From an uncultured Candidatus Poseidoniales archaeon (lineage in GTDB: Archaea; Thermoplasmatota; Poseidoniia; Poseidoniales; Poseidoniaceae), in the NCBI GenBank assembly GCA_902563095.1, contig CACEWA010000001.1, forward strand, positions 104,614-168,613: a stretch of 64,000 nt of DNA. The letters run 5' to 3'. Shown piece by piece: positions 25,684-31,474 of this stretch. The stretch's first letter is position 1. Each line of letters starts with the position of its first letter. The position numbers were made by a program, and so were the translations under genes. The notes under the pieces are model-generated. The model saw only the letters and a program-made list of their open reading frames with translations, searched no databases and was not told where the DNA came from.

Positions 25684-27180
25684 TTACTGACCAGTAATCA
25701 AGTGGTGAAGAGTCCTTACATGGATTCCAGTAGCACCAGTCTTGACCAACTTGTTTGTCTTAGCACCCCATGCTGTTCCAGCGATATCTAGGTGTGCCCA
25801 AGGAATTTGCTCATCGGTTCCATCCTTGTTTGGAATAAATTGCTTCAAGAAAGCCGCAGCGGTGTTTGAACCACCCCAGCGGCCAGCACCGAGGTTGCGA
25901 ACATCTGCAATCTTGGAGTCAGTCATTTCCTTTTCGAATGCCTTGAACAGTGGCATAGGCCATGCGATTTCTCCACAGTGTTCTCCTGCTTCCTTGATCT
26001 TGTTTCTCAAATCATCGTCATTGGACCATAGGCCGCTTGCTTCGTGACCAAGTGCAACGACACAAGCTCCGGTTAGAGTTGCCAAATCGATAATGTAAGA
26101 CGGGTTCAGATGAGTTCCTGTGTACCACAATCCATCGGACAAAACCAATCTTCCTTCTGCGTCTGTGTTCAGAACTTCAACGGTCTTACCAGAGTATGTC
26201 TTGATTACGTCACCTGGGCGTTGAGCGTTAGAAGACGGCATATTTTCTGCCATACATGTAACGCCGATTACTCTGTCCTTGTGCCCGCTAGCAACGATTG
26301 CTTGCATTACACCAAAAGTGGTTGCAGAACCATGCATGTCGTACTTCATCTCATCCATTGAGGGCGGTGGCTTCAACGAAATTCCTCCAGTATCGAATGT
26401 GATTCCTTTTCCAACAATACATGGACTTGGCCCAGGCATATCTGGATTGATTTCGAATATTACCATACATGGTTTCCTTGCCGAGCCCATACCTACTCCA
26501 ACAAGCCCACCCATTCCCATGGAAATGGCTTGTTCGTAAGTGATGATTGTGACCTTTACATTGTCGTGCTTTGCACCAAATTCGATTGCTTGCTCTGCGA
26601 ATGCCATAGGGTATAGGTCGTTAGGTGGTGCATTACCTAGGTCTCTAGCTAGGTAAACTCCAGATGCAACCGCTTGAGACAGTTTTGCTGATTTTTGAAG
26701 ATCTTCAATCTTCTCTGCTTCACATGTAACATGCGCATGTACTTCACCATCATCAGAGTCATCATCTTCATCCTTTGACTTGTACTTGTCATAGGAATAA
26801 TCTCTCAAAATCATGCCTTCGACGAATGCTCCCATGTCTGCACTCTCCATACCGGAGAACTTGACGGTGATAGTTTTGCCATGAATCTTAGAAAGGCTTG
26901 CTGTAACCTTTGCTCCTGATTCTCTCATCGATTGAAGATTAGCATCTTCTGCCTTTCCTAGACCGATTAGCATTGCTTTGCCGCCGTCGGTTCCAGCCAG
27001 TGTCATTGCTGAACCAGCCTTAGCTTTGAAATCGCCTTCACTCAAGATTGTCTCTATTTGATTTTTCAGACTTCTATGGACTCCTGATTCGCTTCCTGAA
27101 GCCATTGAATTACTGTCTTGCCATATTGGAAGAACAAGCGTTCCGTTTATGTTGTCATTGGTGTTTACTGATACCTGCAT
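25684..27180 (-). CDS. pepA: Leucyl aminopeptidase (M17)
   Basis: VGKGITFDTGG, MKYDM, NTDAEGRL, DLATLTGA and WAHLDIAG motifs. AGGTGA SD. Confidence 0.95.
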   Translation of the reverse strand: MQVSVNTNDNINGTLVLPIWQDSNSMASGSESGVHRSLKNQIETILSEGDFKAKAGSAMTLAGTDGGKAMLIGLGKAEDANLQSMRESGAKVTASLSKIHGKTITVKFSGMESADMGAFVEGMILRDYSYDKYKSKDEDDDSDDGEVHAHVTCEAEKIEDLQKSAKLSQAVASGVYLARDLGNAPPNDLYPMAFAEQAIEFGAKHDNVKVTIITYEQAISMGMGGLVGVGMGSARKPCMVIFEINPDMPGPSPCIVGKGITFDTGGISLKPPPSMDEMKYDMHGSATTFGVMQAIVASGHKDRVIGVTCMAENMPSSNAQRPGDVIKTYSGKTVEVLNTDAEGRLVLSDGLWYTGTHLNPSYIIDLATLTGACVVALGHEASGLWSNDDDLRNKIKEAGEHCGEIAWPMPLFKAFEKEMTDSKIADVRNLGAGRWGGSNTAAAFLKQFIPNKDGTDEQIPWAHLDIAGTAWGAKTNKLVKTGATGIHVRTLHHLITGQ

Positions 27181-27236
27181 GGGCTCACCTAATCGTTCCA
27201 GAAGTAAGTGGCACTTGAAGATGCGCATCAAACGGT

Positions 27237-28664
27237 TCATTCAATGAGTTCCGCTTCAAGAGGTTCTTCTTCATCCAAATCAAACGGCTTCTCTTCTCTA
27301 GACCACCAAAATGCAAATGCTACTACGAACAATGGAACAGCACCCGCTTGTAAAATCCAAACCAATGTTTCAACAGATTGAGTAAGGAAACTAGACGTAG
27401 ACGGATTAATGTCGACACTTTCGTTTACCCATTGTGATGAATGAACAACCCGCTTTTGATAGGACAGGCGCCACTCGCCGCCTTCGTGATCAAATCCACT
27501 ACTTGTGATCGTTTTTGTGCTAGTTGCATTTGCTGTGAAATTATCTGATTCCCACAGAACTTTATCTCCATTAACATACTGTAGTGTAGCGTTTTGAGTA
27601 CTTGCACGACCCATGTTGTTAACTGTGAAGGTTACTACTTCATCATCGATACTAAACGATTCTACAACAAGACGTGCTCTCCAATACCAGATGTTGTCGA
27701 TTAGATATCGCATTACATCTAACTCTTCATCTAGTCTATCATTGACATCTTCAAATGTCCCAGGCGCAAACTGTTCATCATCAGTCTCAAATGTGAAAGT
27801 AGGGAAGCCCATTACACCATAGCCGTAATCTCTACTAGTCCCACAATTAGGGTAAAGGCCTTGATTCGCATTTTGGATAGGTATATCCGAAATTCCATCG
27901 TTTACTTCTTCCCTGATTCCGTGGAATAATTCCCAATCTGGAGGTTGTTGTGGCCATTTACCCCAAGGGTATAGCATAATCCAAACCCCAGTGTGCATGG
28001 TTACATACAGGTCTGCATCCTGAACTACTGAATTCATGTAATTCGCATTTGCACGTGTTTCTGGTTCACTAAATGCACTCCCCCCAGGTGCAAATGGGTC
28101 GCTTGGCGAGCAATCATCCCAGAAATGGTCGTAGTTTCTGTTTAGATCAATTCCTGTAGGAACGGGTTCACTTACGAATGGATTTGCTGCTGTGGTTACA
28201 TTCAGATTATGTCTTGTATCGGCATCATTCCCATCCGGATTAAGCATTATCATGATGTGTAATTCTGTACTTTGAAGAACGTTGATTGCTTCTTCATTTT
28301 GCGCATTCCATTCATTGATGTACCACTTTGCAGTTAACCAAGCTAATGCTGTTCCCAAGTACTCATTGCCATGATGTCCACCGTCGATGTAAATGATTTC
28401 TTTAACACTACCATCACTCTTAGTTTCCATAGACCAATCTGATAAGACGACCATCCACAATTCCTTTCCTAAGTAAGATTGACCAATGCTTGACAGCATA
28501 ACTATGTCGGGATTATCAATCGACCAATCATTGACTTCCTGGGTCAATGCTGCCCAAGACATGTATAGGTGGTTGTCTACTGGTTCACCTGGCCAATTTG
28601 GTTCTGCTGTAACTAGCGTCGGAGCCACAATAATCACTGCAAGGAAAATTGCAAGCCCGCGCAT
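27237..28664 (-). CDS. Secreted, membrane-anchored M14 zinc carboxypeptidase
   Basis: Signal peptide, HGNE (HxxE), NPDG, DLNRN, SEPET, TMH, YPWG, C-terminal TM helix. Confidence 0.9.
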   Translation of the reverse strand: MRGLAIFLAVIIVAPTLVTAEPNWPGEPVDNHLYMSWAALTQEVNDWSIDNPDIVMLSSIGQSYLGKELWMVVLSDWSMETKSDGSVKEIIYIDGGHHGNEYLGTALAWLTAKWYINEWNAQNEEAINVLQSTELHIMIMLNPDGNDADTRHNLNVTTAANPFVSEPVPTGIDLNRNYDHFWDDCSPSDPFAPGGSAFSEPETRANANYMNSVVQDADLYVTMHTGVWIMLYPWGKWPQQPPDWELFHGIREEVNDGISDIPIQNANQGLYPNCGTSRDYGYGVMGFPTFTFETDDEQFAPGTFEDVNDRLDEELDVMRYLIDNIWYWRARLVVESFSIDDEVVTFTVNNMGRASTQNATLQYVNGDKVLWESDNFTANATSTKTITSSGFDHEGGEWRLSYQKRVVHSSQWVNESVDINPSTSSFLTQSVETLVWILQAGAVPLFVVAFAFWWSREEKPFDLDEEEPLEAELIE

Positions 28665-28719
28665 GTCCGGCCCAAGTATCAGCATATCATCAATCTGACT
28701 ATTTGTTGTATTAGTCAAA

Positions 28720-30015
28720 TTAGTTTAGAATATATGAGAACAAGATTGGAGCTACGATTGTAGCATCTGATTCTATGATGTGCATTGGTGTGCCCGGTGC
28801 CAATTTACCCCAGGTTATTTTCTCACTAGGTGGCGCCCCAGAATAGCCGCCATAGGATGTTGTAGATTCGGAGATTTGAGCGAACCAACCCCACAGTGGT
28901 GCATTTTCTTGCATATCTTGTCGTAGCATCGGTACAACACATATTGGGAAGTCACCAGCGATGCCTCCACCAATTTGTAAGAAGCCAATCGGATGTTCCG
29001 CATTCATGTACCAATCAGCCAAATGCATCATGTAATCTACTCCTGTCTTTACTGCAGATTTGTCTACATCACCTTTGATACAATGTGCTGCAAAGATATT
29101 GCCAAGGGTGGAATCCTCCCAACCAGGTACGTAAACAGGGATGCCTGCATTCTTTGCTGCAATTAACCATGAGTCCGTTCTTGGAATCTCTGCTTCCAAG
29201 TCATCCAGTATAGCCATCAAATGTTCATGAGGGAAAGCAGGACCATTCTGCCATTGAGCGAGTATCTTGTCTTCTATGTGACGGATTGCTTGTTCCTCGG
29301 GGATACAAGTATCAGTCACTCGATTAAACCCTTTAGAATGCAATTCTTCTTCATCTTCTTCACTAAGATTACGCCAGTTTGGAATCCTTCGATAATGTGA
29401 ATGAGCGACTAAATTGAATACGTCTTCTTCCAAATTTGCTCCTGTGCAAGTTATGGCATGAATTTTTCCAGACCGAATCATAGGTGCAAGAGAGCGCCCA
29501 ATTTCTGCAGTACTCATAGCACCGGCCAAAGTTACCATCAACCTGCCCCCTTCATTCAAAAATTTGTCAAGAGATTTAGCACAATCACTTAGCGCTCCTG
29601 CGTTGAAATGATGGAAATGGCGTTCAACAAACCCTCTTACTCCACCGTTTACCGGTTCTGTTAGGAATCTCTCAACGCGCTTACGTCGATTGATTTTCAT
29701 ATTTGGATAACTTGATTTCAACTCAGTTTCTATTACTTCGATTATTCTAGCTGGGTCGGTTCCCCCACAAGAGAACGCATCTACTGCTAGTAAGCCTGTT
29801 TCTGAATAACAATGCGCGCTAACATGGCTTTCATCCAATAGTACCACCGAAGCAAAACCAAGTGGAGATACGCTTCCATCAAAATCTTCGTTGTGTGAGT
29901 GGACACGGCGCGCTCCAGAAGCATCGACCGCCTTCTCCATCAATGATAGCATCCAAGTTCCACTAACTCCAACCGCACCAGTGCAATCGAGCATTATGTG
30001 AGATCCATGTGCCAT
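28720..30015 (-). CDS. Fusion: pyruvoyl-dependent AdoMet decarboxylase-fold (SpeD-like) domain plus deoxyhypusine/homospermidine synthase-like domain
   Basis: aa 1 to about 118 carry GSHIMLD...LLDESHVSAHCYSE..LAVDAFSCG. The remainder carries HFNA, TLAGAMSTAE, CTGANLEED, NRVTDTCIPEE, IGGGIAGDFPICVVP and SGAPPSEKITWGK. Confidence 0.88.
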   Translation of the reverse strand: MAHGSHIMLDCTGAVGVSGTWMLSLMEKAVDASGARRVHSHNEDFDGSVSPLGFASVVLLDESHVSAHCYSETGLLAVDAFSCGGTDPARIIEVIETELKSSYPNMKINRRKRVERFLTEPVNGGVRGFVERHFHHFNAGALSDCAKSLDKFLNEGGRLMVTLAGAMSTAEIGRSLAPMIRSGKIHAITCTGANLEEDVFNLVAHSHYRRIPNWRNLSEEDEEELHSKGFNRVTDTCIPEEQAIRHIEDKILAQWQNGPAFPHEHLMAILDDLEAEIPRTDSWLIAAKNAGIPVYVPGWEDSTLGNIFAAHCIKGDVDKSAVKTGVDYMMHLADWYMNAEHPIGFLQIGGGIAGDFPICVVPMLRQDMQENAPLWGWFAQISESTTSYGGYSGAPPSEKITWGKLAPGTPMHIIESDATIVAPILFSYILN

Positions 30016-30019
30016 ATTC

Positions 30020-30910
30020 TCACCTCAACCTAGCGATTTGGGCTGCCGCTACTTTGGTTGCAATCATCGCTGCTGTAAACTGTGTAAGTGGGGTGTCATC
30101 CTGAGGAACAATTTCATTCACATCAGCACTAATGACATCACAATTAGAAAATACTGTTTCAATCGTTTGAACTACATGCCAGAAAGATAACCCTCCAGGT
30201 ACAGGCGTTCCAGTTGCTGGCACCAATGAACCATCTAGCCCATCGATGTCGATAGTAAGATGCACTGGACCATCAATATGAGTAAGTGAATCTAACCAAT
30301 CTGTCCAAGCCTTTGCTCCAGTACTAGGACTCATTACATCTTTAGCAAACCAAGTATGAATTCTGTCATCACTATCTATCAAATCCATTTCTTGGCGACA
30401 GAACGCTCTGATTCCTACTTGATGGACTGCTAATGCACCCTCGTCAAGCGAACGAGCAATTGCACAAGCATGCGAGTATGGCTCCCCATCTAATTCATCA
30501 CGTAGGTCTGCATGTGCATCGATTTGAATCAGTGTCACCTTTTTTGGACATCCTCTAAGTATACCAGGGAGGATTCCATGTTCGCCTCCCAAAAAAATCG
30601 GAAATGCACCACTGGAGTATTGTTCTGCAGCATATTTTCCTATTCCATCGAGTTGTTCCTGAAGAGAATTACCCTCTCCATTCCAGGGTTCTTTGGTTCG
30701 AATTATCTTGCCAGCAGGCAGTTCTTCACCAAGTAAATCATCGTACAACTCTACCTGTCCCGATGCCTCAATACATGCAGCAGGACCGTCAGCAGTACCT
30801 TGGCCATATGATGTGGTGAGTTCATATGGGACGGGCGCTATTACTACATCAGCAGCGCCCTCAAAATCAGGTAAACCGAGAAAATTACCCTCGGCGAACT
30901 GCTCAACCAT
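30020..30910 (-). CDS. speB: Agmatinase (ureohydrolase family)
   Basis: PYELTTSYGQGT..GP, GGEH, DAHADLR, DIDGLD and TGTPVPGG motifs. Confidence 0.9.
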   Translation of the reverse strand: MVEQFAEGNFLGLPDFEGAADVVIAPVPYELTTSYGQGTADGPAACIEASGQVELYDDLLGEELPAGKIIRTKEPWNGEGNSLQEQLDGIGKYAAEQYSSGAFPIFLGGEHGILPGILRGCPKKVTLIQIDAHADLRDELDGEPYSHACAIARSLDEGALAVHQVGIRAFCRQEMDLIDSDDRIHTWFAKDVMSPSTGAKAWTDWLDSLTHIDGPVHLTIDIDGLDGSLVPATGTPVPGGLSFWHVVQTIETVFSNCDVISADVNEIVPQDDTPLTQFTAAMIATKVAAAQIARLR

Positions 30911-31051
30911 GGAACTTCCGGGGTAGATTTCCCCTTTGAAGTGCTCGATTGGGCGAAATTCATCGCTGGGTTAATTAGGGACTTCGACCTATACATATTA
31001 CTGCGCAGCGGAGAAGAGTCGCGGGCTATATCTCCAGCGCGAGGTGATTAC

Positions 31052-31474
31052 ATGGGAATGACAATGATGGAACTTACAGAGGCAATTCGCCAGCATATCG
31101 ATATGGAAATGGACCCAGAGGTCGCCTGTGGAATGGCTGAGCATGCTCTTGGCTTCTTTGGATTCTACGATAGAATCATCGACAATGCACTGGAGCCAAC
31201 TGATCGCAACTTGTTCTACATGTTCCAAGATTATGACTTACTAACAACCGAATCTGAAGAAACCACTCTTTGGGACGGCCGTGAATGGAGGATTCACTAC
31301 TGGCGCTTTAAGCCTGAATTGCGAGAGCGTGTTGAAGCGTACATGAATCGTGAAGTCGAGGTTGTAGAGGTTGATCCATTCGGTGACGTATACGGCGATG
31401 CTGGTAGCATCTGGATGCGTGAAGGTGACAAACCAGTCAACCCTAATGCCTTCACTTCCGACCATTGGGGCTGA
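31052..31474 (+). CDS. Conserved Thermoplasmata-type hypothetical protein (DUF6015-like, probable winged helix)
   Basis: FFGFYDRIIDNALEP.DR..FY....LL..E.EETTL.DGREWRIHYW. GAGGTGA SD upstream of the ATG at 31052. Confidence 0.7.
   Translation: MGMTMMELTEAIRQHIDMEMDPEVACGMAEHALGFFGFYDRIIDNALEPTDRNLFYMFQDYDLLTTESEETTLWDGREWRIHYWRFKPELRERVEAYMNREVEVVEVDPFGDVYGDAGSIWMREGDKPVNPNAFTSDHWG

Follow-up and report, generated by a model that had tools for sequence, protein, structure and literature searches.

A SpeDA-SpeY fusion protein that probably joins the first two steps of agmatine-dependent homospermidine synthesis in Poseidoniales

What do two adjoining genes of polyamine metabolism produce when one of them encodes two enzymes in a single chain, and is that chain genuine? 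These questions are raised by a 64,000-nucleotide stretch of contig CACEWA010000001.1 from a Candidatus Poseidoniales archaeon, referred to here as the window, whose positions serve as coordinates throughout; features lie on its minus strand unless stated otherwise. In this window, which belongs to a 1.38-Mb assembly that is 63% complete, a speB-like ureohydrolase gene of the arginase family (30020..30910; 296 amino acids) is followed by one open reading frame (ORF) of 431 amino acids (28720..30015, including its stop codon at 28720-28722), with 4 bp separating the stop codon of speB from the start codon (ATG) of the downstream ORF. The latter comprises an N-terminal pyruvoyl-type decarboxylase domain, SpeDA, and a C-terminal paralogue of deoxyhypusine synthase (DHS), SpeY. 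We consider it likely that the agmatine-dependent homospermidine pathway of Poseidoniales is encoded in full by these two genes, the first two enzymes being joined in one polypeptide. This proposal draws on the domains, catalytic residues, conservation of the fusion and gene context observed here, and on characterised relatives for the three enzymatic activities.

Under this proposal, the 431-residue proenzyme would cleave itself between E62 and S63 into a 62-residue beta chain (residues 1-62) and a 369-residue chain (residues 63-431), the latter beginning with a pyruvoyl group formed from S63 and running through the remaining decarboxylase fold and about seven linker residues to the SpeY domain. 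SpeDA would convert L-arginine to agmatine, SpeY would use NAD and K404 to couple two agmatines into N1,N9-bis(guanidino)homospermidine (G44G, or diagmatine), and the SpeB-type ureohydrolase encoded upstream would strip two ureas from G44G to leave homospermidine. Precedents for the later steps come from bacteria. The text of Kobayashi et al. 2024 (PMC10981699) describes the coupling of two agmatines to G44G by Thermus thermophilus CdmS/SpeY, that of Li et al. 2026 (PMC13625781) reports the same reaction for all tested SpeY enzymes from diverse bacterial phyla, and both describe a SpeB-type enzyme that converts G44G to homospermidine, with two SpeY-associated SpeB proteins found to be inactive on agmatine. 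A homospermidine-type polyamine as the product, and a pyruvoyl group left on the DHS-bearing chain upon cleavage, had both been put forward in the initial annotation of this locus, and both are supported by the present analysis.

The SpeY domain (residues 136-431; 28723..29610) matched the DS profile (PF01916) at residues 137-428 with 139.4 bits, against a cut-off of 27. Its WGK lysine, within the EKITWGK stretch that had been picked out as the active-site region, is K404 (codon 28804..28806); it aligns with the catalytic lysine of DHS chains and is invariant in 34 fused proteins, and its counterparts, K329 of the human enzyme and K299 of Thermus CdmS, are described as the imine-forming lysine in the text of PMC10981699. 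Scores against the canonical-DHS equivalog models reached at best 100.8 and 100.6 bits, where the cut-offs are 364 and 434. The domain is 59% identical to the SpeY of a Caldilineaceae PvlArgDC-Arginase-DS cluster and 59% identical to that of a Flavobacteriales AR-fold decarboxylase-Arginase-DS cluster, and across the 68 bacterial genomes represented in the best 80 loci its identity to DHS-family genes is 54-61%, compared to 22% for the canonical DHS of its own genome, which bears out the initial view that it lies nearer to bacterial DHS-like enzymes. PvlArgDC-Arginase-DS and arginine decarboxylase (ADC)-Arginase-DS are the architectures known from characterised clusters, those of C. aerophila and W. 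algicola.

Genomic context agrees with this relationship, as a DHS paralogue stands beside an ADC and a SpeB in a genome that encodes another DHS. The window protein therefore shares with bacterial SpeY/CdmS a DHS paralogue with a catalytic lysine and ADC and SpeB-type neighbours; unlike them, it is archaeal, is fused to its decarboxylase and scores under the cut-offs of the NF002699 and NF001980 models. On the strength of these comparisons, the C-terminal domain is probably a SpeY, that is, an agmatine homocoupling enzyme and G44G synthase, rather than a DHS. Among related genomes, one from genus g22 (G234) has another DHS-family gene between speDA and the M14 carboxypeptidase gene (L056:3384-4487), which is 27% identical to the window SpeY and has as its best model the Thermus-type G44G synthase (392.9 bits; cut-off 500). 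Here another SpeY type has taken over the slot, an in-place replacement that argues for a function common to both types. A specificity marker based on human D316, which corresponds to Tyr391 in the fused protein, was considered and dropped, as the canonical DHS of the source genome likewise lacks an aspartate at this position.

The upstream gene, initially assigned as an agmatinase-type gene 4 bp from the fused ORF, is confirmed by its coordinates and by matches of its 296-residue product to PF00491 (Arginase; 171.3 bits) and TIGR01230 (agmatinase). Its translation includes GGEH, DAHxD and DxDxxD, which we take to be metal-binding motifs. No other arginase-family locus occurs in the source genome. 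Within the genus, a single such locus was found in 36 of the 38 genomes, in each case immediately upstream of the fused gene, and both genomes that lack it also lack the fused gene; in five genomes of another family (f3) with a lone speDA-speY pair, a single arginase-family gene lies elsewhere. What looked like a 320-bp insertion in the speB gene of G025 (L007) is a run of N. In genus g9 (G045, L031:1792-3405), SpeB and SpeDA are themselves found in one ORF (537 amino acids as listed from a TTG codon), followed by a separate SpeY, and a 500-residue protein from the representative library (P0245) also combines Arginase and AdoMet_dc domains. The single adjoining arginase gene per genome and the SpeB-SpeDA fusion of g9 suggest that the three genes are functionally coupled, and the ureohydrolase probably catalyses the last step, from G44G to homospermidine and two ureas.

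Clusters of this type have been published before: the text of Li et al. 2023 (PMC10407285) describes speB-speDA-speY clusters of marine group II archaea, among which those of marine group II/III euryarchaeote KM3_15_H06 and Ca. Poseidoniales archaeon 70165 come from the same order of archaea and have the three enzyme families and the clustering seen here. In that text speDA and speY are described as separate genes in both clusters, whereas they form one ORF in the window. The pathway is thus already known and the joining of its first two steps is the new part, the novelty being lowered by the unfused cluster and the SpeDA assays in print in PMC10407285.

Several points weigh against the proposed pathway. 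The ureohydrolase just passes the TIGR01230 agmatinase equivalog (177.3 bits against a cut-off of 174.3), making hydrolysis of agmatine possible, and it is only 31-37% identical to SpeB of the bacterial SpeY clusters compared, so that its preference for G44G over agmatine is proposed from pathway logic alone. The SpeY domain falls far short of the NCBIfam SpeY-type models NF002699 (82.1 bits against 500) and NF001980 (118.7 against 450), belonging to a clade that these models cover poorly, and the SpeY assays in the text of PMC13625781 concern bacterial enzymes only, with no archaeal SpeY among them. Furthermore, the source genome is 63% complete, the RNA evidence consists of two short contigs from one metatranscriptome run and does not show expression, and self-cleavage of the fused proenzyme, channelling between its domains and the link to hypusination are each something we infer.

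The same agmatinase match, the distance from bacterial SpeB and the fact that no archaeal SpeY assay contradicts it leave some room for a route through putrescine, which the initial annotation had proposed. In this route SpeDA would supply agmatine, the ureohydrolase would act as an agmatinase to give putrescine, and the DHS-like domain would condense putrescine to homospermidine, the fusion then uniting the first and last steps. We regard this route as unlikely. With the tested bacterial SpeY enzymes, as reported in the text of PMC13625781, G44G builds up in agmatinase-less E. coli and homospermidine is formed only with SpeB, and the Discussion of that paper argues that a canonical agmatinase would starve SpeY of its substrate. 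The window domain shares 59% identity with SpeY of clusters that have the same architecture, and joining two non-consecutive steps would bring no obvious advantage. The agmatine-dependent pathway very probably bypasses putrescine, so that the fused activities would be consecutive, most likely the first and second, with the ureohydrolase probably acting last.

The initial annotation had also considered that the module might serve translation directly. In that scheme, along the lines of one proposed for haloarchaea (PMC5178350), the DHS-like domain would modify aIF5A with agmatine as donor and the agmatinase would complete deoxyhypusine. Consistent with it, the genus has aIF5A and lacks spermidine synthase. 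The latter (PF01564), first noted as missing from the window, was not found in the whole 1.38-Mb assembly, 63% complete, nor in either of the two genomes of the genus that are at least 90% complete, and rose above the cut-off in only one of the 38 genus genomes, as a partial match of 23.3 bits. Some donor other than spermidine is therefore needed. However, the source genome, which encodes aIF5A, also holds the separate canonical DHS for which a check had been advised, on the same contig (C1:59291-60202), and this enzyme passes its own equivalog model (NF002294; 371 bits, cut-off 350). The fused domain has the fold, the NAD-binding motif region and the catalytic lysine in common with this canonical DHS, but is 22% identical to it and reaches 81.8 bits with NF002294. 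Its identity to the enzymes of the 68 bacterial genomes is 54-61%, and bacteria, to our knowledge, have no aIF5A. Because a separate canonical DHS is present alongside aIF5A, direct modification by the fused domain is very improbable. Homospermidine is probably the main triamine of the cell; DHS is able to take homospermidine as a donor, and the separate canonical DHS of this archaeon may draw its aminobutyl groups from homospermidine.

The first step of the proposed agmatine-dependent pathway is assigned to the N-terminal domain (residues 1-118; 29662..30015), which has a class 1b S-adenosylmethionine decarboxylase (AdoMetDC) fold. It matched AdoMet_dc (PF02675) at residues 22-111 with 60.7 bits (gathering cut-off 25), and a sequence search of the PDB returned the class 1b AdoMetDC chains 2iii, 1tlu and 1vr7. 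The self-cleavage machinery read from the sequence at the outset is present in full, comprising E62, S63, H68 and C83, the last within the motif at residues 79-84. S63, H68 and C83 correspond to T. maritima S63, H68 and C83 as given in the text of PMC10407285, and E62, S63, H64, H68 and C83 are invariant across the 34 fused proteins (52-100% identity); this correspondence and conservation place the predicted autocatalytic cleavage site at codons 29827..29832. The AdoMet_dc and DS profiles thus match one chain, in agreement with the continuous two-domain ORF described initially.

The PF02675 match, in a genome that is 63% complete, could also be taken to indicate a genuine AdoMetDC whose partner spermidine synthase is encoded in a portion of the genome missing from the assembly. 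This is scarcely credible in view of what the domain lacks. A proline that is fully conserved in true AdoMetDC and not in SpeDA (text of PMC10407285) is replaced here by Ser71, and the position is occupied by Ser in 92 of the 93 fused clusters and by Ala in the remaining one, never by Pro. The score against the AdoMetDC equivalog TIGR03330, 63.8 bits, is under its cut-off of 75.65. Together with the scarcity of PF01564, seen as a fragment in one of 38 genus genomes and in neither of those at least 90% complete, this means that none of the three marks of a bona fide AdoMetDC (proline, equivalog score and partner spermidine synthase) was found.

The genomic signature of SpeDA given by Li et al. 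2023 is found instead: the source genome has no speE and no other arginine or ornithine decarboxylase, and the gene is clustered with speB and speY. There is one AdoMet_dc gene in the source genome, and neither a PvlArgDC nor an AR-fold decarboxylase was found in this 63% complete assembly. The domain is 50-60% identical to stand-alone SpeD homologues of Poseidoniaceae, and the text of PMC10407285 reports that purified stand-alone SpeDA of marine group II archaea acts on arginine only, with a Km of 2-3 mM and a kcat/Km of 64-180 M-1 s-1, and that marine group II homologues neither restored spermidine synthesis nor had AdoMetDC activity. Judging from Ser71, the TIGR03330 score and the genomic signature, the N-terminal domain is, as the initial annotation had suggested, very probably an arginine decarboxylase and not an AdoMetDC.

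Is the fusion itself real? In the same genus, 33 of the 36 other species have an uninterrupted match to residues 1-429/431 at 76-92% identity, which disposes of the possibility, raised at the outset, that homologues are always split; of the three remaining species, one match is cut by contig ends and two species have no match. For the region 28600-31000, a fraction of at least 0.88 of the words sampled was present in 16 DNA runs, which came from at least seven studies. Among four runs compared, one metagenome contig spans 28600-30989 and differs by eight substitutions without any gap; the junction (29611-29661) is covered by contigs from two further studies as well, with no insertion or deletion listed. 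Of the 14 variant letters listed, none creates a stop and three change an amino acid; neither the uninterrupted genus matches nor the metagenome contigs contain the stop or frameshift between the domains that would have undone the initial reading. Among 11 genus sequences, the ratio of nonsynonymous to synonymous substitution rates (dN/dS) was 0.036 in SpeDA, 0.062 in the linker and 0.025 in SpeY, drawn from the 26-30 of 55 pairs with usable dS; as dS is saturated, these figures show strong constraint only, with purifying selection on both domains. In a large protein collection, both motifs were found in a single chain in 93 of the top 120 clusters.

A few near-identical proteins from long contigs are annotated as split near residue 106-110 of the fused protein (P0123 and P0126, 109 amino acids; P0067 and P0070, 326 amino acids; 82-93% identity), and these could be either sequencing errors or genuine secondary splits. 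That an assembly or frameshift error has merged two truly separate genes into a single ORF, as such split proteins might suggest, has next to no probability given the conservation across the genus, the survey of 401 genomes described below, the indel-free metagenome contigs, the stop-free variants and the 93 clusters with both motifs in one chain. The fusion is genuine, conserved and lineage-specific.

A survey across Poseidoniales, recommended by the initial annotation, showed how far this conservation extends. With a match threshold of E <= 1e-15, matches were found in 372 of the 401 Poseidoniales genomes, and full-length uninterrupted matches were limited to five genera of one family, f1: g1 (the source genome and 26 of 28 others sampled), g20 (5/5), g18 (3/3), g21 (2/2) and g17 (3/3). 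In the other genera of f1 and throughout families f2 and f3, speDA and speY are neighbouring yet split. One f3 genome (G159) has two speDA-speY pairs on separate contigs (C42:3938-5266 and C44:2918-4264). By hand count, the two genes share a frame and are separated by a single stop in about 103 of roughly 330 split genomes. This share, about one third, is that expected by chance, and the idea of programmed read-through in the split lineages was therefore dropped.

Comparison of the junctions indicates how the fusion probably arose. In split forms, speDA stops a few residues past a conserved VERF motif and speY begins about ten residues ahead of HFNAG. The junction of the window gene (residues 119-135; 29611..29661), delimited from the junction translations of 20 loci and the DNA, reads RKRVERFLTEPVNGGVRGFVERHFHHFNAGAL without interruption, and about seven linker residues replace the stop and start codons. 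In 76 of the 93 fused clusters the spacing from RF to HFNA is 18 residues, and among distant ones it reaches up to 52. The fusion probably arose through loss of the stop and start codons between neighbouring speDA and speY genes, and it is fixed in five genera of one family. To examine its history, a tree of SpeY domains was built from 55 rows, omitting L056 for its long branch (27% identity) and L017, L034 and L035 as short or partial loci. Fused sequences of g1 and g20 together with one g18 genome formed a starred clade (100/96), and the g17 pair, the g21 pair and G133 shared a polytomy with the clade of split f3 sequences. On this tree at least two changes between fused and split states are needed, and an approximately unbiased (AU) test with all fused rows constrained together gave p = 0.098; between one and three fusion events are possible.

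An AlphaFold2 model of the fusion protein, built on 34 fused homologues, consists of two well-folded domains (mean predicted local distance difference test score, pLDDT, 89.4; predicted template modelling score, pTM, 0.70), with confidence lowest at residues 117-119, in the junction. The SpeDA region shows a beta/alpha pattern with a pLDDT of about 90. A Foldseek search with the whole model listed only DHS chains, at target-normalised TM-scores of 0.70-0.76.

The fusion was described initially as not known to be characterised, and no SpeDA-SpeY fusion was found in the texts of PMC10407285, PMC10981699 and PMC13625781, though Figure 2 of PMC10407285 or the supplements might show one; the only fusions in those texts are SpeD-SpeDC and aguA-aguB, along with a TBLASTN query construct. 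The closest parallel is offered by the SpeD-SpeDC fusions of Desulfotignum and Omnitrophica (text of PMC10407285), which also join a pyruvoyl-forming SpeD-fold domain to a polyamine enzyme, and in which, as predicted for the window protein, cleavage leaves the pyruvoyl group inside a multidomain chain. The partner in SpeD-SpeDC is a second SpeD-fold domain, whereas in the window protein it is an unrelated NAD-dependent enzyme of DHS fold that would use the product of the decarboxylase.

As natural 'Rosetta stone' evidence, the fusion suggests that archaeal SpeY, like its bacterial counterparts, takes the decarboxylase product agmatine directly, which supports extending the G44G route to archaea. 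That one genome holds both a canonical DHS and an agmatine-linked DHS paralogue is also relevant to whether both kinds are encoded in archaea, a point raised in 2026. Poseidoniales rank with the most abundant archaea of the plankton, and a pathway that requires only arginine and NAD, with neither pyridoxal 5'-phosphate (PLP) nor AdoMet, would be relevant to marine polyamine and nitrogen cycling. Moreover, as a compact two-step enzyme, the fused protein could serve in studies of substrate channelling and of how a pyruvoyl enzyme processes itself when it is part of a multidomain chain.

A likely benefit of the fusion would be the direct passage of agmatine to SpeY, which would offset the weak kinetics of marine SpeDA and keep agmatine from the ureohydrolase. 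It is possible, if doubtful, that the fused enzyme channels arginine to G44G without any release of agmatine, and that, in these archaea without spermidine synthase, the canonical DHS depends on homospermidine (or G44G or agmatine) as its sole source of aminobutyl groups for the hypusination of aIF5A. Were this so, the module would be essential for translation, and one archaeon would contain both an agmatine-dependent and a donor-dependent enzyme of the DHS family, a question left open in the Discussion of PMC13625781.

SpeDA-like AdoMet_dc domains were also observed in other, apparently unreported, combinations, namely with an NNMT/PNMT/TEMT methyltransferase and DS (756 amino acids), with a PQ-loop domain preceding AdoMet_dc, and with a SET domain following it (P0264, P0313, P0317, P0355; P0364, P0312, P0314; P0335); these proteins may be eukaryotic in source.

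Downstream of the fused gene, on the same strand, lie genes for an M14 carboxypeptidase (493 amino acids, membrane-anchored judging by its sequence) and an M17 leucyl aminopeptidase (25684-28718); from the fused gene through the M14 to the M17 gene, stop codons touch or overlap the start codons that follow. That the pathway may draw its arginine from peptides through these neighbours is only a guess. On the other side, a DUF6015 gene (30941-31474, plus strand; 332 bits) is divergent from speB, and the order DUF6015, speB, speDA-speY, M14, M17 was found repeatedly in both large families. DUF6015 keeps its place beside speB even where speDA-speY has relocated. A role for it as a pathway-specific partner was rejected, since each of the 121 genomes sampled across the phylum has it, including those without the pathway. 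A PDB search gave no relative of DUF6015, and together with its presence in all 121 genomes this makes it probably a housekeeping gene without an assigned function. In two genomes of genus g15, the DUF6015 match lies within an open frame of 621-623 amino acids (G067:C7:26724-27140 and G068:C39:4321-4737), which may be a fusion of DUF6015 with the neighbouring M14 gene.

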